DNA of 64,000 nucleotides from a phage, in the sequence record PZ402301.1, one strand, 5' to 3'. A program made the position numbers and the translations under genes. Within the stretch, counting starts at the first letter, position 1, and the number at the start of each line of letters is the position of its first letter. The notes beneath the pieces are model-generated. The model was not told the DNA's origin and made no database searches. It saw only the letters and a list, made by a program, of their open reading frames with translations. Below are positions 320 through 61,675 of this stretch, in pieces.

Positions 320-1162
320 TTAATCAACTGCTATTGGATGAATAGCATTAAACTTATGAAACGCTTCTGATTTTTCTTTGCGCGAAACACACATGCGAAG
401 AACCTTTAATGGCTCGTCTTCTTCACCTAATGATTTTCGTTTTTCAATATTAGAAGTTTTCCAACGAGCTTGCTCTGGAAACTCTTTATTGATTTGCTCA
501 AGAGCTCTATTATGTTTTGAATTACTACGAATTGAACTACATCCGCCTGGAGCTTGTGCTTTTCCAGATACAACCAGATATTTGAACAAAGCCAAATGCG
601 GATAACCTTGATTAATTAAATTGAGAAATGCATACATATCTTCGCATAAATCAATTTTTCCATACCCAATTTGTTCTGTTGTAAGTTTTCCAAGGTCATA
701 CCAGGTATTCGTGAATCCATATGAATTTTCACGATAATTACCCCAAGATGAAGTAATTTTAAAAATAGGTAGACGAGCATGACCGTGATAATACCCACAA
801 TCCATGGCATCTTCAACGTATTGAATTAATTCATAGAACTGTTCACGGGTTAATTGATTAATTTTATCTACGCAGCGACGATCATCTTTCTTTCGCATTG
901 AACTCATACGAATAGTAGTATCATCGTCAATCATCCAAATTCGTTGACCTGCATACATATCAGTAATTGCTTTACGAGTACCAGCAATTCCATTGACATC
1001 ATCAGGAATAGTTATAATTTTAGCTCTAGACCCATAAGCGTCATAATAAGCTTTTTCTTCGTGTTCACGTACTACAATATGTGGTTCATACTCAGTCGGA
1101 AACATATCAAGGGCAGAAACTGCCCCTACGCGTTGATAGCTTGGAATTACGAATTGAATCAT
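320..1162 (-). CDS. DNA glucosyltransferase-like protein (GT-A type, DXD motif IDDDTTI); unlike T4 beta-gt, possibly T2/T6-type beta-glucosyl-HMC alpha-glucosyltransferase
   Basis: ORF 320..1168 (track start is GTG; ATG at 1160-1162 overlaps gene 42 stop as ATGA); occupies the beta-gt position between gene 42 and uvsX but does not resemble T4 beta-gt as I recall it. Confidence 0.5.
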   Translation of the reverse strand: MIQFVIPSYQRVGAVSALDMFPTEYEPHIVVREHEEKAYYDAYGSRAKIITIPDDVNGIAGTRKAITDMYAGQRIWMIDDDTTIRMSSMRKKDDRRCVDKINQLTREQFYELIQYVEDAMDCGYYHGHARLPIFKITSSWGNYRENSYGFTNTWYDLGKLTTEQIGYGKIDLCEDMYAFLNLINQGYPHLALFKYLVVSGKAQAPGGCSSIRSNSKHNRALEQINKEFPEQARWKTSNIEKRKSLGEEDEPLKVLRMCVSRKEKSEAFHKFNAIHPIAVD

Positions 1163-1899
1163 TTCCACTCACCGTTATAATCTTTTTTCGCAATATGAGT
1201 TTCGCCAGTTTTCCACCAATGGTCAACCAAATAAAAATGACGGGAATACACGTGAAGGCTCCCGACGTTCCATATAATGGAACCTGCTTTATACTGACGA
1301 GTTGAATCACCTGCATTCAAATCAGATACTAATTTATCTAGTACGTATTTTTGCCATGCATAATCATTACGGAATCCGAAGACCACGTCATTTGAACGCA
1401 TGCTTACTACTGCATTGACTTTCTTATCACGAATCAGATACTGTACTGTATTCGTACACATGAAATCTGACATGCCATCTTTATTGTAGTCAAACTGCAT
1501 GGATGGACGAGTATAAATCATGATACCACGTCGAGAATCAGGATTTTGACCAAGTTCAGCTAAACACATATCATATTGGGCATAGTTATCTTCTGACCAG
1601 ATGGCCCAACCATAATTCGAGTTAATTTCGCCTTTAGAAGATGCTACCTGCTGCCAAATCTTTGGTGTTTCACCTGGAATATCTTTAACAAACAAACTTT
1701 GAGACTTATACCATTCAAGTTCACGCTGAATGTATTCATCATTAAGAGCGCCAAAAATAAAAGGTTCATCTGCTACAAATGATGCACCAATAATTTCAAT
1801 AGTTTTAACACCGGTTTTATCAATTACGAAATCTTTTTCCTTTAATGCAAGACCCAAATCAAGACGGATTTCTTCAACTGTCATATAATCGTTAATCAT
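1159..1899 (-). CDS. 42: dCMP hydroxymethylase
   Basis: 246 aa, same length as T4 gp42; MTVEEIRL...VYSRHFYLVDHWWKTGETH matches T4 gp42. Confidence 0.95.
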   Translation of the reverse strand: MINDYMTVEEIRLDLGLALKEKDFVIDKTGVKTIEIIGASFVADEPFIFGALNDEYIQRELEWYKSQSLFVKDIPGETPKIWQQVASSKGEINSNYGWAIWSEDNYAQYDMCLAELGQNPDSRRGIMIYTRPSMQFDYNKDGMSDFMCTNTVQYLIRDKKVNAVVSMRSNDVVFGFRNDYAWQKYVLDKLVSDLNAGDSTRQYKAGSIIWNVGSLHVYSRHFYLVDHWWKTGETHIAKKDYNGEWK

Positions 1900-2052: not shown

Positions 2053-2304
2053 TCATTCCTTCTCTCTGATGATAATTACTTGATTTTGCTGTACAGATTT
2101 TTTAGTTTCACCTGCAATTGACCAAATAAAGGTAATAAACCAACCAATAATTGACCAGTTAAACAGTAAAGACGTGAAAAAGATTCCTACTGTCGATTTT
2201 GACCCACGCATCAAGGCGATGAACCACGGAAGCATGTATATAATAATAGCCAACACGCCTGAAACTAAAACCATAAAAATTGAACCTGCTACTAAAGTTT
2301 CCAT
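2053..2304 (-). CDS. imm: Immunity (superinfection exclusion) membrane protein
   Basis: 83 aa, two hydrophobic helices, located between genes 42 and 43 as T4 imm (83 aa). Confidence 0.7.
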   Translation of the reverse strand: METLVAGSIFMVLVSGVLAIIIYMLPWFIALMRGSKSTVGIFFTSLLFNWSIIGWFITFIWSIAGETKKSVQQNQVIIIREKE

Positions 2305-2311
2305 GTTTTCC

Positions 2312-2692
2312 TCACTTAGTCAAATTTTTTACACATGAATTATAAGAATTCACTACATACTCCATCGGAGCATTTTTACCAGTACGCCATTGGTAATTAT
2401 TAGCCCAATTAGCCCAAAGTTCAGCACAGTAATTTTCAATTTTTTCTTCACGCGTAATCACATCTGAATTACGATATGCTTGTGCAGATTCATCTGGACG
2501 AATAGCTTCGTCAAAATTCGCCTGCATTTGTTCTACTGTCTGTTTTGGAGCCTCTTTATAACACTTGACGTTAGGATTATAAAATTTGCTTGAACAGTTT
2601 ACAATTTTTCCTACATCAGACTGATTTACTACTGGTCCTTGAGCTACACAACCAGTAAGACCCAATGCAATAACCAAAATAGCGATTTTCAT
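2312..2692 (-). CDS. Putative lipoprotein (signal peptide MKIAILVIALGLTGC with lipobox); imm.1 position
   Basis: ATG at 2690-2692 follows an early promoter; track ORF 2312..2881 extends upstream through the promoter so the internal start is preferred. Confidence 0.5.
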   Translation of the reverse strand: MKIAILVIALGLTGCVAQGPVVNQSDVGKIVNCSSKFYNPNVKCYKEAPKQTVEQMQANFDEAIRPDESAQAYRNSDVITREEKIENYCAELWANWANNYQWRTGKNAPMEYVVNSYNSCVKNLTK

Positions 2693-2715
2693 TTCATTCT
2701 CCAAATCCGCATCAG

Positions 2716-2780
2716 TTGATAGTTGTATAGTACCACAAAGGAACCGGGATGTAAACAGTTTTGTGAAAAAATTTTTAATG
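2716..2780 (-). promoter_or_regulatory. T4-type early promoter (sigma70: -35 GTTTACA, 17-nt spacer, -10 TACTAT, A/T-rich UP element)
   Basis: Reverse complement reads aaaaattttttcacaaaactGTTTACAtcccggttcctttgtggTACTATacaact; same motif recurs through the early region. Confidence 0.6.
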
Positions 2781-2835
2781 AATTCCAGATGCCCAGAATC
2801 ATCTATTTTTCCTAAGTATAGATTTATATTACTTG

Positions 2836-2851
2836 TATGAAAAAGGGACCC
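2836..2851 (-). terminator. Intrinsic terminator-like hairpin after gene 43
   Basis: gggacc-cgga-ggtccc; on the minus transcript followed by UUUUU. Confidence 0.6.
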
Positions 2852-2873
2852 GGAGGTCCCTAGATTTATTCTA

Positions 2874-5570
2874 TCAGCCAAACAAGAAGTCTAACGAAGC
2901 TTTTTCCTCATAGTCCATACCTGCCGATTCACACATGCCCGCAAGCGGTTTAACAAACGATTTTTGGAACAAAGTTGAGTAGTCAATCCAAGACAGTACA
3001 TCAGAACGAATTTCTTTTGGAAGTTCCGTACCCGACGGCCAAGCAATGCACTTGTCACCAAATGGATTTCCCTCACGTAATGGAAGAACCATTACCTTAT
3101 TTCCATCCAAAATTGGAGCTACACCTAAACCACTAACAGCTCGACGATAAGTTAGCACCCCACGAATGTGGAACGGGCATTTAAATCCTGGCCAACCTTT
3201 ATCGTCATATTTCGCTATATCGTTCGCGGTTTTTACTTCAGCAATAACTTTATAGTCAAGTTGACGATATTCTTTCTCAAAGTTCTTGTAGTATTCTTGG
3301 ACAGACTCTTCGCCTTCCTGAAGAATACGACGAATACTTTCTTCGAGAGCTTCTTGTACTGCTTTTGGTGTTGAACTCTGCTGAGTTTCCATACCCATGA
3401 TTTTTAGATGCGGTTCAGCAAATCGTTTATCTTCCATATCATAAACGTTCAGAGCATAACGTTTTTTCGCTTTCCAAAATCCACCAACACCCTTTGAACC
3501 AAGTGGAGGGCAAGAAATAGCTTCACGGTCCATATGCATCAGATGCTCGCGGTTATTCATATAATCACATAACTCACGATATGCAACATCAATCATAGGT
3601 TCCATCTTTTTCTTACCAAACTGATTCATAAATTCAACTAAATCATTTTGTTCTTTAAAGCGGTCAAGACCTACTTTTTCAATAACTTTATCTACACAAA
3701 CATATACCGAATCAGTATCACCCGCTGCGATGAAATCTTCACCATCAGTTCCACACACTTTATTCAGATATTCATTAATTTTACGAGCAATCCACTGAAT
3801 ACCAACTTGACCAAAAATTGTGATAGCAGTAGCATTTCGCAAATCATAATAGCGGAAATGAATATTACCAAGAGCACCATAAAGACTGTTGATAAGAATT
3901 TTACGGTTCAGCTGATTTGTGTTAGCAAGTGTAGCTGCTTTTTCACATTCTTCGATCAGACTATTAAGAACAGATTCAGTGTAATTCGATAATTCGTTTA
4001 AGAAATCATCATTGAATTTAACATATCGTTCAACTTCTGGTTTAGTTGAACAAGACCCTGCACCTTTCATAATAATCTTTTTAATAGCTTCGGCATTCAT
4101 TTCTTCAGCGAACATTTTCTTTTTCCAATCTTTACGTTGGAAAAATACTTTAGCGATTTCCTTTGGAATGATACCTTCTTGATGCTTATCATACATCCAT
4201 CCATTAGGAGAACAAGAATATTCATCACTTGGCTTAGGAGCTGTTCCTGCGATATATTCATGAATTGGATGAACTTTAAACTGCCCACGAATAGTCTCAG
4301 GACTAATGTTAACCTGACGAATAATGCTAGGATACAGAGACGTCAAGTCAAAACTCATAATGTATCGACGAGCAATCGGTTTAGGTTCAAATACAAATGC
4401 ACCTGGAAAACTCTGTTTAACGTGCGAACCTTGTTGAGGAATAACCTTATGTTCGCCTTTCAGTGAGTTAAAAATAATAGCGTCCCAAGTTTTAATAGGA
4501 CTCATTACACCAGAAAAAGGCATTTTAGCGTAATAAGACATACTTAAAACTAGATCAATAAACCCACGAATTTTATCAATTGCTTGAACTGATTCTACGT
4601 CAATGATGTTATAACTAATGTATCGTTGATGATTAGTCTCACGAAGTTTATTAATAGGACCATCGTACGGCAATTTACCTTTTTTGGTTTCGTGCTGAGC
4701 AACTGATTCCAAAGAGAATGATGGCAAATTAGTAAATGCGAATTTTTTGTACAAATCTAAATAATCAAGAATAGATACGCCATCAATAGAATAAATTTCT
4801 TTGCTACCGTACATATTTTGAATTAGTTTAGATTTTACTCGACCGATTGGAGAGAAGCGTTTCATACTACGTTCACCGAGAACCATTTTAACACGATTCA
4901 TGATATACGGAACGTCAAATCCCTCAATATTCCAACCGGTAAAAATAGCAGGTCGTTTCTGTTCCCAGAGATTAATATATTCCATGAGCATATCGCGCTC
5001 ATTATCAAATGGCATATAAATTACTCGGTCAAGAATTTCTTGAGGAACTTCATCACCACCTTCACAGTCAAGCTTAGCAGCTAACTTTGCATCCCATTTT
5101 GATACTGAACCGTACATTGAATTCAACAAATCAAAGACGTAAAAACGGTCGTCAATTGAATCATAATGAGTGATAGCATCAATTTCATATTCTGCTTTCA
5201 TTGGGTCAGGAAATTTATCACCAGTAACCTCAATGTCACAGTTAGCTACACGAACAAATTTTCGGTCATAAACAATTTCTGAACCATATGTATCACTGAT
5301 ATAAGCGAGTTTAAAATCGTTCATACCAAGAGCTTCGAGACCGATGTCTTCCATTCGCTTCATCCAGTCTCGTGCATCTTTCATTGATGGAAATTTTTGA
5401 GGAGCGCAATTTTTACCGTAAATGTCTTTGTACTTTGACTCTTCCTTACAATGCCTAAACATAGTCGGAAGATATTCTACTTCACGAGTACGTTCCTTTC
5501 CGTTTTCATCAATATAACGCTCAACAATATTATTTCCGACTGTTTCGATAGAGATATAAAATTCTTTCAT
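2874..5570 (-). CDS. 43: DNA polymerase (family B) with 3'-5' exonuclease
   Basis: 898 aa, MKEFYISIETVGNNIVERYIDENGKERTREVEY... matches T4 gp43 sequence and length. Confidence 0.97.
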   Translation of the reverse strand: MKEFYISIETVGNNIVERYIDENGKERTREVEYLPTMFRHCKEESKYKDIYGKNCAPQKFPSMKDARDWMKRMEDIGLEALGMNDFKLAYISDTYGSEIVYDRKFVRVANCDIEVTGDKFPDPMKAEYEIDAITHYDSIDDRFYVFDLLNSMYGSVSKWDAKLAAKLDCEGGDEVPQEILDRVIYMPFDNERDMLMEYINLWEQKRPAIFTGWNIEGFDVPYIMNRVKMVLGERSMKRFSPIGRVKSKLIQNMYGSKEIYSIDGVSILDYLDLYKKFAFTNLPSFSLESVAQHETKKGKLPYDGPINKLRETNHQRYISYNIIDVESVQAIDKIRGFIDLVLSMSYYAKMPFSGVMSPIKTWDAIIFNSLKGEHKVIPQQGSHVKQSFPGAFVFEPKPIARRYIMSFDLTSLYPSIIRQVNISPETIRGQFKVHPIHEYIAGTAPKPSDEYSCSPNGWMYDKHQEGIIPKEIAKVFFQRKDWKKKMFAEEMNAEAIKKIIMKGAGSCSTKPEVERYVKFNDDFLNELSNYTESVLNSLIEECEKAATLANTNQLNRKILINSLYGALGNIHFRYYDLRNATAITIFGQVGIQWIARKINEYLNKVCGTDGEDFIAAGDTDSVYVCVDKVIEKVGLDRFKEQNDLVEFMNQFGKKKMEPMIDVAYRELCDYMNNREHLMHMDREAISCPPLGSKGVGGFWKAKKRYALNVYDMEDKRFAEPHLKIMGMETQQSSTPKAVQEALEESIRRILQEGEESVQEYYKNFEKEYRQLDYKVIAEVKTANDIAKYDDKGWPGFKCPFHIRGVLTYRRAVSGLGVAPILDGNKVMVLPLREGNPFGDKCIAWPSGTELPKEIRSDVLSWIDYSTLFQKSFVKPLAGMCESAGMDYEEKASLDFLFG

Positions 5571-17976: not shown

Positions 17977-18066
17977 GCATTGATAAGCACTAAACTATAT
18001 TGCGAATAAAATTCTGGACCAAAATGAAAAATCATATCATTTATAGTGTCCATAATATAATTCAAT

Positions 18067-18537
18067 TTAATCATGTTTCCACACCCCATCGGTATTTGAC
18101 CAAAGTCGCTGATTATCTGATCCTCGCCACAGCTTTTTGGTCGGAAGATTTTTCTCATACTTCCCATCAATAATAACATCAACATATTTAAGCATTTCTA
18201 GTTGTTTAATATCTTCAAACTTATATCCTGTCCACAACCAAATGCTTTTATTGGGATAAAGATTTTTTACTGTTTGAACAATGCAATGAACAACATCTCG
18301 GTTATCAGGATAGAGAGGGTCTCCTCCAGTTATAGTTAATCCTTCTATATAATCATTATTCAAACATTCAATTAATTGTTCTAGTGTTTCACCAGTGAAT
18401 GGAACACCATTTCTAGCATTCCATGTTGATTTATTATAACACCCTTCGCATTTATGCAAACAACCTGTAACGAAAAGAACGACCCTGCATCCAGGGCCAT
18501 TCACAAAATCGCAGGGATAAAATCTATCGTAATTCAT
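18067..18537 (-). CDS. nrdG: Anaerobic ribonucleotide reductase activating protein (radical SAM)
   Basis: 156 aa; CxxxCxxC cluster motif GCLHKCEGC; downstream of nrdD as in T4. Confidence 0.9.
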   Translation of the reverse strand: MNYDRFYPCDFVNGPGCRVVLFVTGCLHKCEGCYNKSTWNARNGVPFTGETLEQLIECLNNDYIEGLTITGGDPLYPDNRDVVHCIVQTVKNLYPNKSIWLWTGYKFEDIKQLEMLKYVDVIIDGKYEKNLPTKKLWRGSDNQRLWSNTDGVWKHD

Positions 18538-20428
18538 TGGTGTTTAACCCTATGCATGATTTCTTTATTTTTGCCAAGATTAAATCCGCGCTCGTTCGGA
18601 TTTCCCAAATAACCGCAAGTTCTTCTTATGGTGTTCATCTTTTTAGGATCAGTTTCTCCACAAATAGAACAAACAAATCCGTTTTCAGTAGGAGTCATTT
18701 CATGGGTACTTCCGCATGTAAAACATTTATCTACTGGCATATTAACACCAAAATAATCTAAATGTTGTGCAGCATAATCCCATACAGCCTCAAGACCTTT
18801 TAGGTTATTTTTCATATCAGGAAGTTCAACATAAGAAATGTGACCACCTGTCGCAATGAAATGATACGGAGCTTCGCGAGAAATCTTTTCAAACGGAGTA
18901 ATATTTTCTTCTACTGAAACGTGGAAACTGTTAGTATACCAGCCTTTATCGGTAACATCTTTTACACTTCCATATTTTTCGGTATCAAGTTTACAGAAGC
19001 GATAGCACAGGTTTTCAGCAGGAGTAGAATATAAGCTAAAAGCAAAACCAGTTCTTTCAGTCCATTGTTTAAGATGAATATTCATTTTAGTTAAAATTTC
19101 TTGTCCAATATCACGACCGACAAGAATATTCAATTCGTGAATACCAATGTATCCTAGGGACACTGAACTTCTACCGTTTTTAAATAACTCAATTATATCG
19201 TCATCAGGTTTAAGACGAACCCCGAATGCACCTTCTTGATAAAGAATAGGAGCAACAGTAGCTTTAACCCCTTTTAAGGAACTAATTCTACACATCAAAG
19301 CTTCAAAACATAAATCCATTCGCTCATTGAACAATTCAGTAAATTTCTGTTCATTGAACTGTGTTCCAATATAAGAATCTAACGCAATACGAGGAAGATT
19401 CAGTGTTACAACACCAAGATTATTACGTCCATCAAGAATTTCATTACCAGTCGAATCTTTCCATACGCCCAAGAAACTACGACAACCCATTGGAGAAACA
19501 GGAATAGATGAACCGGTGATAGCTTTATTGTTCTTAGCCGAAATGATGTCAGGATACATTCTTTTACTTGCACACTCTAGAGCAAGCTGCTTAATATCAT
19601 AGTTCGGATCGTCTTTATAAAGATTAACACCTTCTTCAACGAACATAACAAGTTTAGGGAAAATAGGAGTTATCCCGTCACGACCAAGGCCTTTAATACG
19701 ATTTTTCAGAATTGCTTTCTGAATCATTCGTTCAGTCCAGTCAGTTCCCATGCCAAATGTAATTGTTACAAAAGGCGTTTGTCCGTTTGAACTAAAGAGA
19801 GTATTTATTCAGTCCAGTCAGTTCCCATGCCAAATGTAATTGTTACAAAAGGCGTTTGTCCGTTTGAACTAAAGAGAGTATTTAGTTCATATTCATAAGC
19901 TTGGAATGCATCGTATACGTCTTTTTCTGTTTTAGATTGGGCATAATTCAACGCATCAGCGATTTGCCATTTTTCTGCATCCTCAATATGTTTTGCATAG
20001 GTGCGTTTAACATAAGGAGAAAGGACTTTATCTACATTCGCAAAAGTCGTTCCACCATATTGATGGGAAGCAACCTGTGCAGTAATTTGTGCCATAATTG
20101 CAGTAGCAACACCGATTGATTTAGGAGTTTCAATCTGTGCATTACCGAGCTTAAATCCGTTCTCAAGCATTCCTTTTAAATCTACTAAACAGCAATTAGT
20201 AAATGGAAGAGCAGGGGAATAATCAATATCATGGAAATGAATAATTCCGCTTTCATGCGCTTTCATAATAAAAGACGGGACCATATTTTTGGCAATGTGT
20301 TTAGACACAATACCAGCCATAAGGTCCCGTTGAGTTGGAAAAACACGAGAATCTTTATTAGCATTCTCGTTTAAAAGGTCTTTATTAGTTTTATGAATCA
20401 ATCCTTCAATTTCTTTTTCAATTGTCAT
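18534..20428 (-). pseudogene. nrdD: Anaerobic ribonucleotide reductase NrdD, frameshifted by a 77-bp tandem duplication; intronless
   Basis: Two ORFs (19805..20428, 207 aa; 18534..19751, 405 aa) both carry GMGTDWTE at the break; together about 605 aa as T4 NrdD; C-terminal fragment has the Zn-ribbon motifs CFTCGSTHEMTPTENGFVCSICG and glycyl-radical region RRTCGYLG. Confidence 0.85.
19731..19884. repeat. Perfect tandem direct duplication, 2 x 77 bp (19731-19807 and 19808-19884)
   Basis: Unit ttcagtccagtcagttcccatgccaaatgtaattgttacaaaaggcgtttgtccgtttgaactaaagagagtattta occurs twice head-to-tail. Confidence 0.95.
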
Positions 20429-20898
20429 TTTAAACTCTTTCTAAGCTGCTTCTTAAATGAAGCTATTAATTGTGTTTTAGTGTCAGATTCATTATATTCA
20501 AATCCTCTTTGAAGCATCTCAGCCATCATTTCCTCTTTTCCTAAACGAGAAAATTCCTTTGATTTATCTCCAACGAAGTTAGGGTGAATATTATTTTGGG
20601 TGTAATCGGATTTTAAATAAGTAAGTAAATTTTCTAGCCATTCAAGATAATCAACACCTTGTCCCTTTAAGCCAGAACGATTGAATTTATGCTTCATTTG
20701 ACCTTCTGCAGCATTACAGAGATTACATAGCAACCCACGTACCTTTCCTGCTTTTGGTCCATTTAATTCATGGTCATGGTCAAGGTGATTAGCTTGAACA
20801 TCAGGATTTAGTTCTCGTTGGCAAATTAAGCATTTACCGTTTTGTGCATCATAAAATTTCTGTTTTTCTTCTTTGTATAATTTGCCAGTCAATAACAT
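20425..20898 (-). CDS. 49: Endonuclease VII (Holliday junction resolvase)
   Basis: 157 aa; MLLTGKLYKEEKQKFYDAQNGKCLICQRELNPDVQANHLDHDHELNG... matches T4 gp49. Confidence 0.95.
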   Translation of the reverse strand: MLLTGKLYKEEKQKFYDAQNGKCLICQRELNPDVQANHLDHDHELNGPKAGKVRGLLCNLCNAAEGQMKHKFNRSGLKGQGVDYLEWLENLLTYLKSDYTQNNIHPNFVGDKSKEFSRLGKEEMMAEMLQRGFEYNESDTKTQLIASFKKQLRKSLK

Positions 20899-20947
20899 AA
20901 TAAAACCCTTACCTTGAATAGATAAGGGTATTTATTATTTTCAAGTA

Positions 20948-21394
20948 TTAAAATGCTCGGTCAGAAAAAGAAATTTGAGTTTCAAGCCATTCAATATATT
21001 CTGCCGCAGCTTGCATCAAATTTCCTTCATAACCATCGTTATTTTCTTGTGCAGCTAATTTAGCTAATGCATATGAAATGCGTTCACCTTGAAAAGCGGC
21101 TTTAGGTTTATGAATAACTTGATCAACTCGTTCTACGACCTCTTCAATTTCGCCATTTTCTACTGATTCAGTATTCCACAAGCACCAATACGTAATTGGC
21201 TTATCGTAGATGTTAATAATCTTTCCATCAGAAAGTTCAATTTCAATAATTCCAGTATCAGGTTCTATATCATCTTCGCATTCTTTTGCAAGTTCACGAA
21301 CTTTAAAGACAGCACCTGCACTAAGTTCCGGCCAGTAATTACACAGCCCTGTATCAGCACGATTAATTCTAAACCACTTATCTACTGTAATCAT
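20948..21394 (-). CDS. pin: Protease inhibitor Pin-like protein (assigned by position)
   Basis: Track ORF 20948..21412 starts at TTG; first ATG at 21392-21394; position after gene 49 matches T4 pin but the sequence is not recognised from memory. Confidence 0.45.
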   Translation of the reverse strand: MITVDKWFRINRADTGLCNYWPELSAGAVFKVRELAKECEDDIEPDTGIIEIELSDGKIINIYDKPITYWCLWNTESVENGEIEEVVERVDQVIHKPKAAFQGERISYALAKLAAQENNDGYEGNLMQAAAEYIEWLETQISFSDRAF

Positions 21395-46279: not shown

Positions 46280-46355
46280 TGGTCGAGGCAGTAGGGATCG
46301 AACCTACGACCTAGGACTTAGAAGGTCCTTGCTCTTCCTTCTGAGCTATGCCTCG
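46280..46355 (-). tRNA. tRNA-Arg (anticodon UCU)
   Basis: Manual fold of reverse complement: acceptor CGAGGCA/TGCCTCG, anticodon loop CUUCUAA, T-loop TTCGATC, encoded CCA. Confidence 0.8.
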
Positions 46356-46359
46356 GATT

Positions 46360-46434
46360 TGGCGGACATGCATGGATTCGAACCATGGACCAATTGATTA
46401 ACAGTCAACTGCTCTACCACTGAGCTACACATCC
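46360..46434 (-). tRNA. tRNA-Asn (anticodon GUU)
   Basis: Manual fold: acceptor GGATGTG/CATGTCC, D-arm GCTCAGTGGTAGAGC, anticodon loop CUGUUAA, T-loop TTCGAAT, CCA. Confidence 0.75.
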
Positions 46435-46438
46435 AAAT

Positions 46439-46525
46439 TGGTGGGGAGTGATGGAGTCGAACCACCCGAGTCGCAATGACAATGGATTTACAGTCCACAC
46501 CGCTACCTCTACGGGATAACTCCCC
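46439..46525 (-). tRNA. tRNA-Tyr (anticodon GUA), long variable arm
   Basis: Manual fold: acceptor GGGGAGT/ACTCCCC, anticodon loop CUGUAAA, 87 nt with extra arm, CCA. Confidence 0.75.
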
Positions 46526-46538
46526 TTAATTCTTAATT

Positions 46539-46613
46539 TGGTGGCCCTGGGTGGAATTGAACCACCATCTGGCGATTATGAGTCGCTTGCTTGAACCTTC
46601 CAGCTACAGGGCC
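46539..46613 (-). tRNA. tRNA with anticodon CAU (Met, or Ile if lysidine-modified as in T4)
   Basis: Manual fold: acceptor GGCCCTG/CAGGGCC, anticodon loop CUCAUAA, T-loop TTCAATT, CCA. Confidence 0.7.
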
Positions 46614-46621
46614 AAATTTTC

Positions 46622-47104
46622 TTATTTTATGTAATATTTATTTAAAAACTTTCTAGCTTGAGTATGGCTAACATTTATAGCGTTTGCATAATTTTTAATA
46701 AAACCTCGTTCATCCATATTAAAATTTTCTAATATTTTTAATCGTCTAGTTATCTCATCTTGACTTAAGGTACTTGCATTATTTTTAGAAATTTTTTCTA
46801 AGGACTGCGCCGAGTGTTTTCGACCATTAAAATTAAAATTTTTAGATTTTGGAGGAAATCTAGCATTTAGTCTCGCATCTTTTGTATTTTGATTATTAGT
46901 TGCGCAATATATGTTATTTAATGAATATGGTCCTTTATCGCCGAAACGGCACATGCAATATTCATGACCCTTTCTTCCACGCTTATCATAATTTCCCGTT
47001 GATTTCCACCAATGCAGCCATTCATCAAAAGTTAAATTCCATTCAATGTTTCTACGTATAGCAGAATTCCGCTGAGAAATATATTTTGCATAATCTTCTT
47101 TCAT
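46622..47104 (-). CDS. Homing-endonuclease-like protein (NUMOD3-type motif, C-terminal HTH-like tail)
   Basis: About 160 aa; NGRKHSAQSLEKISK resembles NUMOD3; C-terminus NVSHTQARKFLNKY parallels the segB-like ORF; catalytic domain type unclear. Confidence 0.5.
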   Translation of the reverse strand: MKEDYAKYISQRNSAIRRNIEWNLTFDEWLHWWKSTGNYDKRGRKGHEYCMCRFGDKGPYSLNNIYCATNNQNTKDARLNARFPPKSKNFNFNGRKHSAQSLEKISKNNASTLSQDEITRRLKILENFNMDERGFIKNYANAINVSHTQARKFLNKYYIK

Positions 47105-47151
47105 CACAAATTTCTCTACTTATTCAATACACTGAGCTAAATCAGCAAAAC

Positions 47152-47241
47152 TGGCGGAGGCGATAGGATTTGAACCTATGAGTCGCCGGAGCGACTGCCG
47201 GTTTTCAAGACCGGTGCATTAAACCACTCTGCCACGCCTCC
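47152..47241 (-). tRNA. tRNA-Ser (anticodon UGA), long variable arm
   Basis: Manual fold: acceptor GGAGGCG/CGCCTCC, anticodon loop CUUGAAA, T-loop TTCAAAT, CCA. Confidence 0.8.
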
Positions 47242-47247
47242 AAATAT

Positions 47248-47856
47248 TTATATACTGTTAATTTGATTTAGAATTCTTTTTGCTTGAGTATGACTTACTC
47301 CAATATGCTTAGCATATTTATATAATTCACCACGCTTAGAAAAATCATATAATTTAGAAATTTCTATTCTTCTTTTTCTTTCATCCGCAGAAACTTTTGC
47401 TTCGTTTGCTTTTGCTATTTTACGTTTAGCTTCTTGAGAATGAGTTTTACCAGCAAAGCCATTCTTCATTAATCCATTTGAAGACCATCCTTTTAATTTT
47501 CCATTAGAATGAGCCTTTTTAACACCCAATGAAATTAATTCGCGTTGCTGATCTGTCATAGGATAATTATTTATATGGTCCCATCCACCTTCACCGCCAA
47601 GTTTTAAATTATACACATCTGGTCTATTTAAAAACTCTTCTGTGACAATATTTTTCTCGGCTTCAAGCATAGATTCTTTATCATCAAAATACTCTAATAT
47701 TTCTTTAGAGAAATTTTCTATACCATACTTGTCTTGGGCTCTTTTTAATAATTTACCAGAACCCATATATCCATCATCTAAATTTTCGGTAGAATGCACA
47801 CCAATATAAATTTTATTATTAATTTTATTTGTTATTTTATAAAGATAAAAATGCAT
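47248..47856 (-). mobile_element. segB: GIY-YIG homing endonuclease gene (SegB-like) inside the tRNA cluster
   Basis: Start taken at MHFYLYKITNKINNKIYIGVHST (GIY-YIG core); NUMOD3-like GKTHSQEAKRKIAKA; C-terminal HTH-like tail; T4 segB also sits in the tRNA cluster. Confidence 0.7.
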
Positions 47857-47902
47857 ATCAGTCCCTAATAAAGAACTGAGCGTCTCACGACGAGTCATAA
47901 AT

Positions 47903-47976
<74 letters not shown>

Positions 47977-47981
47977 AAATT

Positions 47982-48068
47982 TGGTGCGAGAAGTGGGACT
48001 CGAACCCACAAGGAAATCATTCCGCAGCATTTTAAGTGCTGTGCCTTTACCAATTTGACCATTCTCGC
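47982..48068 (-). tRNA. tRNA-Leu (anticodon UAA), long variable arm
   Basis: Manual fold: acceptor GCGAGAA/TTCTCGC, anticodon loop CUUAAAA, T-loop TTCGAGT, CCA. Confidence 0.8.
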
Positions 48069-48069
48069 G

Positions 48070-48142
48070 CTGGGAATAAAGGACTTGAACCTTTGCATCT
48101 AGCAGTCAAAGTGCTATGCCTTACCAACTTGGCTAATTCCCA
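48070..48142 (-). tRNA. tRNA-Gln (anticodon UUG), CCA not encoded
   Basis: Manual fold: acceptor TGGGAAT/ATTCCCA, anticodon loop CUUUGAC; 3' end abuts tRNA-Leu 5' end as in the T4 Gln-Leu dimeric precursor. Confidence 0.8.
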
Positions 48143-53464: not shown

Positions 53465-54055
53465 ATGCTCTTTACATTTTTTGATCCGATTGAATATGCG
53501 GCCAAAACGGTGAATAAAAACGCGCCGACTATTCCTATGACAGATATTTTTAGAAACTATAAAGACTATTTCAAACGTGCTCTTGCGGGATACCGTTTAC
53601 GTACTTATTATATTAAAGGTTCACCACGCCCGGAAGAATTAGCAAACGCTATATATGGAAATCCACAGTTGTATTGGGTTTTATTGATGTGTAATGATAA
53701 TTATGATCCGTATTATGGATGGATTACTTCGCAAGAAGCTGCTTATCAAGCATCTATCCAAAAATACAAAAATGTAGGTGGAGACCAAATAGTATATCAT
53801 GTGAATGAGAATGGTGAAAAATTTTATAATTTAATATCATATGATGATAACCCATATGTTTGGTATGACAAAGGCGATAAAGCTAGAAAATATCCTCAAT
53901 ATGAAGGAGCACTTGCTGCGGTCGATACGTATGAAGCTGCTGTTCTTGAAAATGAAAAACTTCGTCAAATAAAAATAATAGCAAAATCAGACATCAATTC
54001 ATTTATGAACGACCTTATACGTATAATGGAGAAATCTTATGGAAATGATAAGTAA
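53465..54055 (+). CDS. 53: Baseplate wedge protein gp53
   Basis: 196 aa as T4 gp53; SD GGAGG; late promoter upstream. Confidence 0.93.
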   Translation: MLFTFFDPIEYAAKTVNKNAPTIPMTDIFRNYKDYFKRALAGYRLRTYYIKGSPRPEELANAIYGNPQLYWVLLMCNDNYDPYYGWITSQEAAYQASIQKYKNVGGDQIVYHVNENGEKFYNLISYDDNPYVWYDKGDKARKYPQYEGALAAVDTYEAAVLENEKLRQIKIIAKSDINSFMNDLIRIMEKSYGNDK

Positions 54056-55766
54056 TAACCTTAATTGGTTTGTTGGTGTTGTTGAAGATAGAATGGACCC
54101 ATTAAAATTAGGTCGTGTTCGTGTTCGTGTAGTTGGTCTGCATCCACCTCAAAGAGCACAAGGCGACGTAATGGGTATTCCAACTGATAAATTACCATGG
54201 ATGTCAGTTATTCAACCTATAACTTCTGCAGCAATGTCTGGAATTGGAGGCTCCGTTACTGGTCCAGTAGAAGGAACTAGAGTTTATGGTCATTTTTTAG
54301 ACAAATGGAAAACTAACGGAATTGTCCTTGGCACATATGGCGGAATAGTTCGCGAAAAACCTAATAGACTTGAAGGATTTTCTGACCCAACTGGACAGTA
54401 TCCTAGACGTCTAGGAAATGATACTAACGTATTAAACCAAGGCGGAGAAGTAGGATATGATTCGTCTTCTAATATTATCCAAGATAGCAATCTAGACACT
54501 GCGATAAATCCCGATGATAGACCACTATCAGAAATTCCAACTGATGATAATCCAAATATGTCAATGGCTGAAATGCTTCGCCGTGATGAAGGATTAAGAC
54601 TAAAAGTTTATTGGGATACTGAAGGATATCCGACAATTGGTATTGGTCATCTTATCATGAAGCAGCCAGTTCGTGATATGACTCAAATTAATAAAGTTTT
54701 ATCAAAACAAGTTGGTCGTGAAATTACCGGAAATCCAGGTTCTATTACAATGGAAGAAGCGGTAGCTTTATTTGAACGTGATTTGGCTGATATGCAACGT
54801 GACATTAAATCACATTCTAAAGTTGGCCCAGTTTGGAAAGCAGTTAATCGTTCTCGTCAAATGGCATTAGAAAATATGGCATTTCAGATGGGCGTTGGCG
54901 GTGTAGCTAAATTTAACACAATGTTAACAGCTATGTTAGCCGGAGATTGGGAAAAAGCATATAAAGCTGGTCGTGATTCATTGTGGTATCAACAAACAAA
55001 AGGCCGTGCATCTCGTGTTACCATGATTATTCTTACAGGTAATTTGGAATCATACGGTATTGAAGTGAAAACACCAGCTAGGTCTTTGTCAGCAATGGCT
55101 GCTACTGCAGCAAAGTCTTCTGATCCAGCTGACCCTCCTATTCCGAATGATTCGAGAATTTTATTTAAAGAACCTGTTTCTTCATATAAAGGTGAATATC
55201 CATATGTTCACACAATGGAAACTGAAAGCGGTCATATTCAGGAATTTGATGATACCCCTGGGCAAGAGCGATACAGATTAGTTCATCCGACTGGAACGTA
55301 TGAGGAAGTATCACCGTCAGGAAGAAGAACAAGAAAAACTGTTGATAATTTGTATGATATAACAAATGCTGATGGTAATTTTTTGGTAGCTGGCGATAAA
55401 AAGACTAACGTCGGTGGATCAGAAATTTATTACAACATGGATAATCGTCTTCACCAAATAGATGGAAGCAACACAATATTTGTCCGTGGCGATGAAACTA
55501 AGACAGTTGAAGGTAATGGAACTATCCTAGTTAAAGGTAATGTTACTATTGTAGTCGAAGGTAATGCTGACATTACAGTTAAAGGAGATGCTACCACTTT
55601 AGTTGAAGGAAATCAGACTAATACAGTAAATGGAAATCTTTCTTGGAAAGTTGCTGGAACAGTTGATTGGGACGTTGGTGGTGATTGGACAGAAAAAATG
55701 GCATCTATGAGTTCTATTTCATCTGGTCAATACACAATTGATGGATCGAGGATTGACATTGGCTAA
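54039..55766 (+). CDS. 5: Baseplate hub plus tail lysozyme gp5
   Basis: 575 aa as T4 gp5; internal lysozyme domain (MAEMLRRDEGLRLKVYWDTEGYPTIGIGHL) and C-terminal beta-helix VxGxxxxxV repeats. Confidence 0.95.
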   Translation: MEMISNNLNWFVGVVEDRMDPLKLGRVRVRVVGLHPPQRAQGDVMGIPTDKLPWMSVIQPITSAAMSGIGGSVTGPVEGTRVYGHFLDKWKTNGIVLGTYGGIVREKPNRLEGFSDPTGQYPRRLGNDTNVLNQGGEVGYDSSSNIIQDSNLDTAINPDDRPLSEIPTDDNPNMSMAEMLRRDEGLRLKVYWDTEGYPTIGIGHLIMKQPVRDMTQINKVLSKQVGREITGNPGSITMEEAVALFERDLADMQRDIKSHSKVGPVWKAVNRSRQMALENMAFQMGVGGVAKFNTMLTAMLAGDWEKAYKAGRDSLWYQQTKGRASRVTMIILTGNLESYGIEVKTPARSLSAMAATAAKSSDPADPPIPNDSRILFKEPVSSYKGEYPYVHTMETESGHIQEFDDTPGQERYRLVHPTGTYEEVSPSGRRTRKTVDNLYDITNADGNFLVAGDKKTNVGGSEIYYNMDNRLHQIDGSNTIFVRGDETKTVEGNGTILVKGNVTIVVEGNADITVKGDATTLVEGNQTNTVNGNLSWKVAGTVDWDVGGDWTEKMASMSSISSGQYTIDGSRIDIG

Positions 55767-56597: not shown

Positions 56598-58580
56598 ATG
56601 GCAAATACCCCTGTAAATTATCAATTAACAAGAACAGCAAATGCTATTCCCGAGATATTCGTCGGGGGTACATTTGCTGAAATAAAACAAAACCTCATTG
56701 AATGGCTTAATGGTCAAAATGAATTTTTGGATTATGATTTTGAAGGCTCAAGATTAAACGTTCTGTGCGACCTTTTGGCTTATAATACATTATACATTCA
56801 GCAGTTTGGTAATGCTGCCGTATATGAAAGCTTTATGCGTACTGCTAACTTACGTAGTTCAGTAGTTCAAGCGGCGCAAGATAATGGATATTTACCTACT
56901 TCAAAATCAGCTGCTCAAACTGAAATTATGCTAACTTGTACAGACGCACTGAATAGAAATTACATTACTATTCCTCGTGGTACTCGCTTTTTAGCATATG
57001 CAAAAGATACTTCAGTTAATCCTTATAACTTTGTATCTACCGAAGATGTTATTGCTATTCGTGATAAAAATAACCAGTATTTTCCACGTTTAAAATTAGC
57101 CCAAGGGCGTATAGTAAGAACTGAAATCATTTATGATAAATTAACACCTATTATCATTTATGACAAAAATATAGATAGAAACCAAGTTAAGCTGTATGTT
57201 GATGGAGCAGAATGGATTAACTGGACAAGAAAGTCAATGGTTCATGCTGGTTCTACATCAACAATTTACTACATGCGTGAAACTATTGATGGAAATACTG
57301 AATTTTATTTTGGTGAAGGTGAGATTTCTGTTAACGCGGCAGAAGGAGCATTGACTGCTAATTATATTGGGGGTCTTAAACCTACCCAGAACTCTACGAT
57401 TGTTATTGAGTACATCAGTACTAACGGCGCAGATGCGAATGGCGCAGTCGGATTTTCATATGCAGATACATTAACAAATATAACTGTCATCAATATTAAC
57501 GAAAATCCAAATGATGACCCAGATTTTGTTGGGGCAGATGGCGGCGGCGATCCAGAAGATATTGAGCGTATTCGCGAATTGGGTACTATTAAACGCGAAA
57601 CCCAGCAACGCTGCGTAACTGCAACCGACTATGATACATTCGTCTCAGAAAGATTCGGTTCTATTATTCAAGCAGTTCAGACTTTCACTGATTCTACTAA
57701 ACCTGGTTATGCATTTATTGCTGCTAAACCTAAATCAGGATTGTATTTAACTACTGTACAACGCGAAGATATTAAAAATTATCTCAAAGATTATAATTTA
57801 GCTCCTATTACGCCATCAATTATTTCTCCTAATTATCTTTTTATTAAGACTAATTTAAAAGTCACATATGCTTTAAATAAGCTGCAAGAATCCGAACAGT
57901 GGCTTGAAGGTCAAATAATTGATAAAATTGATCGTTATTATACCGAAGATGTAGAAATTTTTAATTCATCTTTCGCTAAATCTAAGATGTTGACATATGT
58001 AGATGATGCAGATCATTCTATTATTGGCTCATCGGCGACAATTCAGATGGTACGTGAAGTACAAAACTTCTATAAAACGCCTGAAGCGGGTATTAAATAC
58101 AATAATCAAATAAAAGATCGTTCTATGGAATCTAATACGTTTTCATTTAATTCCGGACGAAAGGTTGTAAATCCTGATACTGGCTTAGAAGAAGATGTAT
58201 TATATGACGTTCGTATAGTATCAACAGACCGAGATTCTAAAGGAATTGGTAAAGTTATTATTGGTCCATTTGCTTCTGGCGATGTTACAGAAAATGAAAA
58301 CATTCAGCCATATACAGGCAATGATTTTAATAAATTAGCAAGTTCCGATGGACGCGACAAATACTACGTTATCGGTGAAATAAATTATCCAGCTGACATG
58401 ATTTATTGGAATATCGCTAAAATTAATTTAACATCCGATAAATTTGAGGTTCAGACTATTGAGCTATATTCTGATCCAATAGACGATGTTATTTTCACAC
58501 GCGATGGTTCACTGATTGTATTTGAAAATGATTTACGTCCACAATACTTAACTATCGATTTGGAGCCTATATCACAATGA
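56598..58580 (+). CDS. 6: Baseplate wedge protein gp6
   Basis: 660 aa as T4 gp6. Confidence 0.93.
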   Translation: MANTPVNYQLTRTANAIPEIFVGGTFAEIKQNLIEWLNGQNEFLDYDFEGSRLNVLCDLLAYNTLYIQQFGNAAVYESFMRTANLRSSVVQAAQDNGYLPTSKSAAQTEIMLTCTDALNRNYITIPRGTRFLAYAKDTSVNPYNFVSTEDVIAIRDKNNQYFPRLKLAQGRIVRTEIIYDKLTPIIIYDKNIDRNQVKLYVDGAEWINWTRKSMVHAGSTSTIYYMRETIDGNTEFYFGEGEISVNAAEGALTANYIGGLKPTQNSTIVIEYISTNGADANGAVGFSYADTLTNITVININENPNDDPDFVGADGGGDPEDIERIRELGTIKRETQQRCVTATDYDTFVSERFGSIIQAVQTFTDSTKPGYAFIAAKPKSGLYLTTVQREDIKNYLKDYNLAPITPSIISPNYLFIKTNLKVTYALNKLQESEQWLEGQIIDKIDRYYTEDVEIFNSSFAKSKMLTYVDDADHSIIGSSATIQMVREVQNFYKTPEAGIKYNNQIKDRSMESNTFSFNSGRKVVNPDTGLEEDVLYDVRIVSTDRDSKGIGKVIIGPFASGDVTENENIQPYTGNDFNKLASSDGRDKYYVIGEINYPADMIYWNIAKINLTSDKFEVQTIELYSDPIDDVIFTRDGSLIVFENDLRPQYLTIDLEPISQ

Positions 58581-61500
58581 CAGTAAAAGCACCTTCAGTC
58601 ACTAGTCTCAGAATTTCCAAGTTATCCGCAAATCAGGTGCAAGTACGCTGGGATGACGTTGGTGCTAATTTCTACTATTTTGTAGAAATCGCTGAGACAA
58701 AAACAAACTCGGGGGAAAATCTCCCGAGTAATCAATACAGATGGATTAACTTAGGATATACTGCAAATAACAGCTTCTTTTTTGATAACGCTAATCCATT
58801 GACATCGTACATTATTAGAGTAGCTACAGCTGCGCAGGATTTTGAGCAGTCTGATTGGATTTATACTGAAGAGTTTGAAACTTTTGCTACAAACGCTTAT
58901 ACATTTCAAAACATGATTGAAATGCAATTAGCTAATAAATTCATTCAGGAAAAATTTACTCTTAATAATTCTGACTATGTCAATTTTAACAATGATACTA
59001 TAATGGCTGCATTGATGAACGAATCGTTTCAATTCAGCCCATCATATGTTGATGTTTCATCAATAAGTAATTTTATTATTGGTGAAAATGAGTATCATGA
59101 AATACAAGGTTCTATTCAGCAAGTATGTAAGGATATTAACCGAGTTTATTTGATGGAATCAGAAGGGATTCTATATCTTTTTGAGCGTTATCAACCTGTA
59201 GTTAAAGTATCTAATGATAAAGGACAAACTTGGAAAGCTGTAAAACTCTTCAATGACCGCGTAGGATATCCTTTATCTAAGACAGTATATTACCAATCTG
59301 CAAACACAACATACGTTCTAGGATACGACAAGATTTTCTATGGCCGCAAATCTACTGATGTTAGATGGTCAGCTGATGATGTCAGATTTAGTTCGCAGGA
59401 TATAACATTTGCTAAACTTGGCGACCAATTACATCTAGGATTTGATGTAGAAATTTTTGCCACTTACGCGACTTTGCCAGCTAATGTATACCGCATTGCA
59501 GAAGCTATTACTTGCACCGATGATTACATTTACGTTGTCGCCAGAGACAAAGTTAGATACATAAAAACGAGTAATGCACCTATAGATTCTGACCCATTAT
59601 CTCCAACATATTCGGAAAGGCTATTTGAACCTGATACGATGACTATAACTGGAAATCCTAAAGCAGTATGTTATAAAATGGATTCTATTGGTGATAAAGT
59701 TTTTGCTCTTATTGTTGGAGAAGTTGAAACATTAAATGCTAATCCTAGAACATCAAAAATAATTGATTCTGCCGATAAAGGAATATATGTTTTAAATCAT
59801 GCCACGAAAACATGGAAAAGAGTTTTTGGCAACACTGAAGAAGAAAGAAGACGTATTCAACCTGGATATGCGAATATGTCAACTGATGGTAAATTAGTTT
59901 CTCTGTCTTCGAGTAATTTTAAATTTTTAAGTGATAACATTGTTAATGACCCTGAAACTGCAGCGAAATATCAGTTAATCGGTGCTGTTAAATATGAATT
60001 TCCTCGTGAATGGCTAGCTGATAAGCATTATCATATGATGGCATTTATAGCAGATGAAAAATCTGATTGGGAAACTTTTACACCTCAGCCGATGAAATAC
60101 TATGCAGAACCATTCTTTAACTGGTCTAAAAAATCTAACACACGCTGTTGGATAAACAACTCTGATAGAGCTGTAGTAGTTTATGCTGATTTAAAATACA
60201 CCAAAGTTATAGAAAATATTCCGGAAACATCACCAGATAGATTAGTTCATGAATACTGGGATGATGGTGATTGTACGATAGTAATGCCAAATGTTAAATT
60301 CACGGGATTTAAAAAATACGCGTCTGGGATGCTTTTTTATAAGTCTTCTGGTGAAATAATTTCTTACTATGATTTTAACTATCGAGTGAGAGACACGGTT
60401 GAAATAATTTGGAAGCCAACTGGAATATTTTTAAAAGCATTTTTACAAAACCAAGAGCGCGAAACTCCTTGGTCCCCGGAAGAAGAGCATGGATTAACTG
60501 ATCCTGATTTAAGACCATTGATTGGCACAATGATGCCTGATTCTTATTTGCTACAGGATTCTAATTTTGAGGCATTCTGCGAAGCATATATTCAGTATCT
60601 TTCTGATGGATATGGAACTCAGTATAATAATTTACGAAATTTAATTCGTAACCAATATCCGCGAGAAGAGCACGCGTGGGAATATTTGTGGTCAGAGATA
60701 TATAAAAGAAACATTTATTTAAATGCTGATAAACGTGATGCTGTTGCAAGATTTTTTGAATCACGTAGCTATGATTTTTATTCTACTAAAGGAATTGAAG
60801 CATCATACAAATTTCTTTTTAAAGTTCTTTATAATGAAGAAGTTGAAATTGAAATTGAATCTGGGGCTGGTACTGAATATGATATAATCGTTCAATCTGA
60901 TTCTTTGACTGAAGATTTAGTAGGACAAACGATTTATACAGCTACAGGAAGATGTAATGTTACTTATATAGAAAGAAGCTATTCTAATGGTAAATTGCAA
61001 TGGACCGTAACTATTCATAATCTTTTGGGAAGATTAATTGCCGGTCAAGAAGTTAAAGCAGAAAGACTCCCTAGTTTCGAAGGCGAAATTATTCGCGGGG
61101 TTAAAGGAAAGGATTTGCTTCAAAATAATATAGACTATATTAATAGAAGTAGATCATATTATGTAATGAAAATTAAATCCAATTTACCTTCTTCCCGCTG
61201 GAAATCTGACGTTATTCGTTTTGTTCATCCAGTAGGATTTGGATTTATAGCAATTACTCTTTTAACAATGTTTATTAATGTTGGTTTAACCCTTAAACAC
61301 ACAGAGACTATAATTAATAAATACAAAAACTATAAATGGGATTCTGGATTGCCTACTGAATATGCTGATAGAGTAGCTAAATTGACTCCAACCGGTGAAA
61401 TTGAGCATGATTCGGTAACAGGCGAAGCAATTTATGAACCTGGCCCAATGGCTGGTGTAGAATATCCTCTTCCTGATGACTATAATGCTGAAAATAATAA

Positions 61501-61675
61501 TTCAATATTTCAAGGTCAATTGCCATCTGAACGACGTAAATTAATGAGTCCTCTATTTGATGCATCTGGAACAACATTTGCGCAATTTAGGGATTTAGTT
61601 AATAAACGTCTAAAAGATAATATAGGAAATCCAAGAGACCCTGAAAATCCAACACAGGTTAAAATAGATGAATGA
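58577..61675 (+). CDS. 7: Baseplate wedge protein gp7
   Basis: 1032 aa as T4 gp7; start overlaps gene 6 stop. Confidence 0.93.
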   Translation: MTVKAPSVTSLRISKLSANQVQVRWDDVGANFYYFVEIAETKTNSGENLPSNQYRWINLGYTANNSFFFDNANPLTSYIIRVATAAQDFEQSDWIYTEEFETFATNAYTFQNMIEMQLANKFIQEKFTLNNSDYVNFNNDTIMAALMNESFQFSPSYVDVSSISNFIIGENEYHEIQGSIQQVCKDINRVYLMESEGILYLFERYQPVVKVSNDKGQTWKAVKLFNDRVGYPLSKTVYYQSANTTYVLGYDKIFYGRKSTDVRWSADDVRFSSQDITFAKLGDQLHLGFDVEIFATYATLPANVYRIAEAITCTDDYIYVVARDKVRYIKTSNAPIDSDPLSPTYSERLFEPDTMTITGNPKAVCYKMDSIGDKVFALIVGEVETLNANPRTSKIIDSADKGIYVLNHATKTWKRVFGNTEEERRRIQPGYANMSTDGKLVSLSSSNFKFLSDNIVNDPETAAKYQLIGAVKYEFPREWLADKHYHMMAFIADEKSDWETFTPQPMKYYAEPFFNWSKKSNTRCWINNSDRAVVVYADLKYTKVIENIPETSPDRLVHEYWDDGDCTIVMPNVKFTGFKKYASGMLFYKSSGEIISYYDFNYRVRDTVEIIWKPTGIFLKAFLQNQERETPWSPEEEHGLTDPDLRPLIGTMMPDSYLLQDSNFEAFCEAYIQYLSDGYGTQYNNLRNLIRNQYPREEHAWEYLWSEIYKRNIYLNADKRDAVARFFESRSYDFYSTKGIEASYKFLFKVLYNEEVEIEIESGAGTEYDIIVQSDSLTEDLVGQTIYTATGRCNVTYIERSYSNGKLQWTVTIHNLLGRLIAGQEVKAERLPSFEGEIIRGVKGKDLLQNNIDYINRSRSYYVMKIKSNLPSSRWKSDVIRFVHPVGFGFIAITLLTMFINVGLTLKHTETIINKYKNYKWDSGLPTEYADRVAKLTPTGEIEHDSVTGEAIYEPGPMAGVEYPLPDDYNAENNNSIFQGQLPSERRKLMSPLFDASGTTFAQFRDLVNKRLKDNIGNPRDPENPTQVKIDE

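Follow-up and report, generated by a model that had tools for sequence, protein, structure and literature searches.

An exact 77-nt tandem duplication splits the intronless nrdD of a T-even phage record and is probably an untrimmed assembly overlap

In phage T4, nrdD (sunY) is interrupted by a 1033-nt group I intron that encodes the GIY-YIG endonuclease I-TevII, with exon 1 ending in GCTTATGAGT and exon 2 starting with ATGAAGTGAACACGTTATTC. I-TevII is said to cut 13-15 nt 3' of the insertion site. In T2 and most other Tequatrovirus phages the gene is intronless, the junction reading GCTTATGAAT/ATGAAGTAAATACTCTCTTT without interruption, and nrdG follows directly after nrdD. In Aeromonas phage Aeh1, the ribonucleotide reductase gene nrdA is split by mobE; the second half has translation signals, and activity has been demonstrated. 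T4-like phages have circularly permuted genomes, which are commonly re-oriented before deposition, and 77 is the largest default SPAdes k for reads of about 150 nt. Under default settings, SPAdes contigs of circularly permuted phage genomes start and finish with the same 77 bp, one copy of which must be removed (Gendre et al., PMC9409062), and a 127-bp version of this end overlap has also been described (Philipson et al., PMC5923482). Finally, SegB drives tandem segmental amplification in T6, where the unit is 718 bp long, multi-copy, joined by microhomology, selected by a defence system and inclusive of the endonuclease gene (PMC13096335). The same 2026 study leaves open whether I-TevI or I-TevII drive such amplification (PMC13096335).

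Here we set against these systems the nrdD locus in a 64,000-nt stretch of phage DNA (record PZ402301.1; hereafter the window), in which the gene is read as two ORFs around an exact 77-nt tandem duplication. We put the probability at roughly 0.75 that the phage has an ordinary, intact, intronless nrdD of the T2 type and that the split is an untrimmed 77-nt assembler overlap, a reading drawn from the sequence itself.

The nrdD locus and its intronless state

The window has the T4 gene order 49, nrdD, nrdG across 18067-20898 on the minus strand. Gene 49 (endonuclease VII; 20425-20898, minus strand; Pfam Endonuclease_7 and Endonuc-dimeris) lies directly upstream of nrdD as in T4, and the activase gene nrdG (18067-18537, minus strand; Pfam Fer4_12 and Radical_SAM) overlaps the nrdD stop at 18534-18537. 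Unlike in T4, there is no mobC, a free-standing HNH endonuclease gene, between nrdD and nrdG, an absence common to the close relatives examined. The N-terminal nrdD ORF (19805-20428, minus strand) encodes 207 aa, comprising NrdD residues 1-206 followed by a stop that the duplication junction creates. It matches positions 1-170 of the 562 in Pfam NRDD (E 1.7e-52) and covers residues 1-207 of the NrdD of phage ECO07P2 with 98.6% identity. The C-terminal ORF (18534-19751, minus strand) encodes 405 aa and starts at the natural M201 codon, which here lies inside the second copy of the duplicated block. It matches NRDD positions 172-562 of 562 as well as Gly_radical (E 8.8e-26), and carries the glycine-radical domain and the Cys cluster, with the motif NTIRRTCGYLG readable in its translation. 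As in a class III NrdD, the full-length family profile is covered, by the two fragments together, and the glycine-radical domain (RRTCGYLG) is accompanied by an adjoining nrdG, but the sequence as given holds two frames in place of a single uninterrupted one.

The surroundings of the gene are well preserved. Among the 42 ECO07P2 CDSs compared with the first 24 kb of the window, 38 align end to end without gaps, 2 more are gap-free save at their last residues and 1 accessory gene is absent; nrdD is the sole CDS to be split across two frames. This indicates that base-level quality is high and that nrdD shows no other decay, which suggests that the gene was under selection until now. The absent CDS encodes an 83-aa hypothetical protein beside gene 43 in ECO07P2 (positions 2705-2956 of that contig, L042; about 2700-2870 in the window) and has no window counterpart, a small accessory-gene difference. 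Between uvsX and gene 42, the ORF at 320-1168 (minus strand) matches a 280-aa protein of ECO07P2 with 99% identity, and its equivalents in other contigs carry Pfam PF20691 (TAGT). It represents a glucosyltransferase of the T2/T6 type in the place of T4 beta-gt, in agreement with an earlier remark that the glucosyltransferase of this phage differs from that of T4.

The locus is the same gene and target region as T4 nrdD, with exons that are 95-97% identical, but it lacks both the intron and the endonuclease. No group I ribozyme core follows GCTTATGAGT, and no GIY-YIG endonuclease ORF (I-TevII) lies within the gene. At Rfam gathering thresholds, no Intron_gpI (RF00028) was found in the 64 kb window in a scan that did find eight tRNAs and in which the T4 nrdD intron, used as a positive control, scores 105 bits. 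The tRNA genes are clustered at 46283-48142 (minus strand), the one at 46444-46523 being barely over the Rfam threshold (30.2 versus 29 bits). A blastn search with the T4 nrdD intron DNA gave no match in the 64 kb window, and tblastn searches with T4 I-TevII and T4 MobC gave no counterpart in the window, the best window-wide E-value for I-TevII being 1.1. These searches bear out the preliminary description of this DNA, which had read nrdD (18534-20428, minus strand) as intronless and without I-TevII.

The same description took the intronless gene as the mark of a non-T4 isolate. The phage is indeed not T4: the genomes closest to it, at about 97-98% identity, belong to ordinary Tequatrovirus isolates, and mobC is absent. 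The intronless state is not, however, diagnostic of this. A 62-nt probe spanning the uninterrupted exon junction found 537 phage records; in 535, phage T2 among them, the match is contiguous, a count to be read as a lower bound of at least 535 records. Of 50,697 records, just 27 contain DNA of the 1033-nt T4 nrdD intron, and most of these are T4 or laboratory derivatives of it. An intronless nrdD is the ordinary state among Tequatrovirus and was already known as such, and nothing new is learnt from the intronless state itself. A diverged nrdD intron, 80-90% identical to that of T4 and with a homing endonuclease gene, was seen in Salmonella phage pSe_SNUABM_01 (NC_054937, positions 2229-3351 of the locus examined, L002). 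It occupies the same insertion point as the T4 intron, and its exon 2 starts ATGAAGTAAATACAC, which resembles the T2-type intronless allele more closely than it does T4.

Anatomy of the duplication and the base beside it

Copy 1, the first in the gene sense, lies at 19808-19884 (minus strand; gene-sense positions 545-621), and copy 2 at 19731-19807 (minus strand; gene-sense positions 622-698); the two are identical at 77 of 77 positions. The periodicity ends abruptly at 77 on both sides of the tandem block, leaving zero microhomology. The junction of copy 1 and copy 2 reads ...GGACTGAA/TAAATACTCTC..., also given as GGACTGAA/TAAATACTC, and it is this junction (GAA/TAAAT) that forms the TAA at the end of the N-terminal fragment. 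Deletion of either copy restores the frame and yields an 1818-nt gene for 605 aa, of which 598 are identical to T4 NrdD.

According to the preliminary description, a 77-bp duplication and nothing else separates the two fragments, with copies 97% identical and a mutated stop. Nothing else does lie between the ORFs, but the copies are 100% identical. The lower figure stems from the register in which the repeat search and TRF reported the tandem, the correct one being 5 nt away. The same 5-nt shift disposes of a CGA-to-TAA mutation selected to end the first fragment, a candidate that we rejected, as the identity rises to 100% and the TAA is the junction itself. Unequal crossing-over at a TGAA microhomology was also rejected; it predicts a 78-nt period with a G retained, which is not observed. 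TRF found no second array like the 77-nt tandem in the window, which, together with the intact gene left when one copy is deleted, speaks against a chance repeat. It reported imperfect 24/48-nt tandem repeats at 55503-55637 (plus strand), inside an ORF at 54039-55766 (575 aa). The length of this ORF suggests gene 5 (baseplate hub), in which case the repeats would probably correspond to the 8-residue units of the C-terminal beta-helix.

The duplication was found in no other record. All phage records listed lack the extra 77 nt: each aligns as two segments that together extend over 77 nt less than the query (a 154-nt span in one of the searches), and a carrier would rank first of the 690 matches. 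A 31-mer across the junction has zero matches in the viral, genome and metagenome contig collections, the complete E. coli genomes searched contain no match to the duplication, and neither nrdD fragment is on record among proteins. The 1032-aa product of the ORF at 58577-61675 is likewise without a record, and contigs with an identical DNA polymerase agree with the window at only 95-99% at the DNA level.

The base that adjoins the block in the gene-upstream direction is equally private. At window position 19885 (minus strand; gene-sense position 544), all colinear relatives have G (GAA GTA, Glu-Val); C (GAA CTA, Glu-Leu) is confined to the window and gives V182L. Once deduplicated, the 62 nt around the exon junction are identical at 61 positions to T2, GEP001 and many others. 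None of the 537 records that match the 62-nt probe is identical to it, the best agreeing at 61 of 62 positions. The window thus differs from the T2-type allele by the C at gene-sense 544 and by the extra 77-nt copy, neither of which occurs in any other record searched. Of 35 loci compared, 32 have Val at residue 182 and 3 have Ile, with Leu in none, and close relatives show no variation there. Comparison with a panel of 17 relatives gave only two private bases in the 2874 deduplicated nt of 18000-20950, the other being a synonymous GGA-to-GGG change at 19269 (codon 161 of the C-terminal fragment). The chance that a private base would touch the block is about 2 x 2/2874 = 1.4e-3.

Two ORFs of a ribonucleotide reductase gene in a T4-like phage recall Aeh1 nrdA, and the halves of nrdD could in principle be translated separately into an active reductase. 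T4 tolerates intervening DNA at the place of the split, both ORFs together cover the whole Pfam NRDD model, and the second ORF opens with an in-frame ATG. We nevertheless consider this reading highly improbable. The ATG lies 54 nt past the first stop and is preceded by no Shine-Dalgarno sequence within 30 nt, 25 residues would occur in both fragments, and the arrangement is unique to the window sequence and bears no sign of age. The intervening endonuclease gene and the second-half translation signals of Aeh1 have no equivalent between the ORFs of the window. M201 itself is natural variation, shared with WL-3 and three more distant loci (L012-L014), in all of which nrdD is intact. For this reason, and given that no ribosome-binding site precedes it, M201 was discarded as an adaptive start of the second fragment.

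Proximity to the T4 intron site

The intronless homologue of the 30-nt T4 I-TevII target lies at 19871-19900 (minus strand) and reads GCTTATGAAT/ATGAACTAAATACTCTCTTT; the 30-nt target string of T4 agrees with the T4 exon junction as read here. The T4 insertion point falls between window positions 19891 and 19890. The gene-upstream boundary of the duplicated block (19884) is 6 nt downstream of that point and inside the 30-nt target. The preliminary description had proposed to align the duplication with the T4 intron site and would have given up a homing-site origin if the two were far apart. With 6 nt between them, the proposal survives this comparison. The block starts about 9 nt upstream (5') of where we take the I-TevII cut to fall. 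The stretch from insertion point to cut differs from that of T4 at 7 of 15 positions. By our own rough estimate, a random cut point would place the boundary inside the I-TevII target with a chance of ~1-2% within nrdD and ~1e-4 genome-wide.

This proximity bears first on the notion that the duplication is the footprint left when an intron or homing endonuclease gene once present here was lost imprecisely. Closeness to the insertion site is what such a loss would lead one to expect. However, no intron-derived nucleotide is left, and the additional 77 nt are exon 2 sequence without a single change. The flanking exon is that of the T2-type intronless allele rather than the intron-plus context of T4 or pSe_SNUABM_01. 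We know of no deletion mechanism that yields a 77-nt exon duplication, and the notion is scarcely credible.

It bears more directly on a real and recent 77-bp tandem duplication that, with the adjoining point mutation, inactivates a non-essential nrdD, whether or not through repair of a break. Overall we regard such an event as unlikely. It may have originated in the faulty repair of a double-strand break that an I-TevII-like endonuclease of a co-infecting intron-plus phage had introduced at the nrdD homing site. In favour of this, the upstream boundary lies inside the 30-nt target, 6 nt past the insertion site in the 3' direction and about 9 nt short of the expected cut, and a private substitution at the boundary could also be left by error-prone junction formation. 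Identical copies in an otherwise undamaged gene are as expected for a very recent event. T6 offers a precedent, SegB-driven tandem segmental amplification (PMC13096335), and the likeness goes some way: in both cases, a tandem direct repeat starts beside a homing endonuclease target in a T-even genome, here with its boundary 6 nt 3' of the insertion site. In contrast to the T6 unit, that of the window is 77 bp long, is present in two copies and has no microhomology, no endonuclease and no evident selection. The cognate I-TevII is missing from the window, although a co-infecting donor is conceivable, and the junction microhomology of the SegB case is missing as well.

Further points weigh against a real duplication. 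Its length would have to coincide exactly, at 77 nt, with the default k of SPAdes, no I-TevII, MobC or intron sequence lies in the window, no selective benefit is apparent, and no second genome with the duplication was found in the collections searched. The narrower version, in which both the duplication and V182L are real and are the scar of a mis-repaired I-TevII-like break at the intronless nrdD site during a mixed infection, is more doubtful still. Thus the homing-site idea rests on a true proximity and is still not the best explanation of the duplication, owing to the exact 77-nt length, the zero microhomology, the adjoining private base and the absence elsewhere (see also PMC9409062).

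A probable untrimmed k = 77 overlap

We return to the assembly overlap as the preferred reading. The characteristic mark of a circular SPAdes contig that was cut at a bubble vertex of a de Bruijn graph with k = 77 and then rotated untrimmed is a private single-nucleotide difference at position x, with x+1 to x+77 repeated directly after it. From the anatomy of the block, its uniqueness and its fit to this graph model, we infer an assembler, a polymorphism in the reads and a rotation that would have acted together as follows. Assembly of the circularly permuted genome with k = 77 would have given a circular de Bruijn path, and the contig would in consequence have been written with the same 77-mer at both ends. 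Later rotation or joining without removal of one copy would then turn the overlap into an internal exact tandem duplication. The cut point may have been set by a mixture of G and C alleles among the reads at gene-sense position 544, in which case the G/C bubble would close at the 77-mer spanning 545-621, which is the duplicated unit.

The structure was reproduced in a toy graph with k = 77, built from the deduplicated region with both G and C at 544. The duplicated 77-mer is the sole converging node of this graph, and a loop cut at that 77-mer and rotated untrimmed gives the junction contexts of the window base for base. Compared with the described SPAdes k-mer overlap (77 bp by default, 127 bp with longer reads), the repeat of the window has the same exact identity, a length equal to k and, after joining of the ends, a direct tandem order; it too lies in a circularly permuted phage genome, here a T4-like one. 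Two exact copies of a length that equals the default largest k (77) are present here, and they are absent from the related genomes and independent assemblies searched. The repeated k-mer may also be a graph vertex next to a position that varied in the reads: the private base adjoins the block, and the toy graph gives the same structure. The repeat differs from the described overlap in being internal, and rotation or an untrimmed join must therefore be assumed. A minority of intron-plus phage, T4-like or pSe_SNUABM_01-like, was considered as the source of the graph branch and rejected, as the exon 2 of such phage differs from the duplicated 77-mer and the vertex would not be shared.

Two observations on the gene also support an overlap. 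After removal of one copy, the rest of nrdD is undamaged (598 of 605 residues identical to T4), and the downstream fragment has no ribosome-binding site. On the other side, the position of the cut point inside the I-TevII target is a coincidence that the overlap does not account for, unless heterogeneity among the reads is linked to the homing site. A bulge remover should moreover keep the majority allele, so that C would be the majority base of the stock and V182L a real, recent change. Finally, nrdD is dispensable in aerobic laboratory growth and a real frameshifting duplication would be tolerated, which also counts against an overlap.

If the duplication were real after all, it would be modestly interesting as a tandem duplication seeded at the target of a homing endonuclease. 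A break-repair scar would be a natural case of a homing endonuclease that creates a local tandem duplication and a disrupted, cut-resistant target, instead of intron homing. On the preferred reading of an assembler overlap, the practical value lies in quality control: one of the 77-bp copies in the record is probably spurious, and with it a conserved gene that is otherwise intact reads as two ORFs. Such a copy would mislead annotation, as a "split" or "pseudogene" nrdD, and with it surveys of gene disruption or of homing-site scars.
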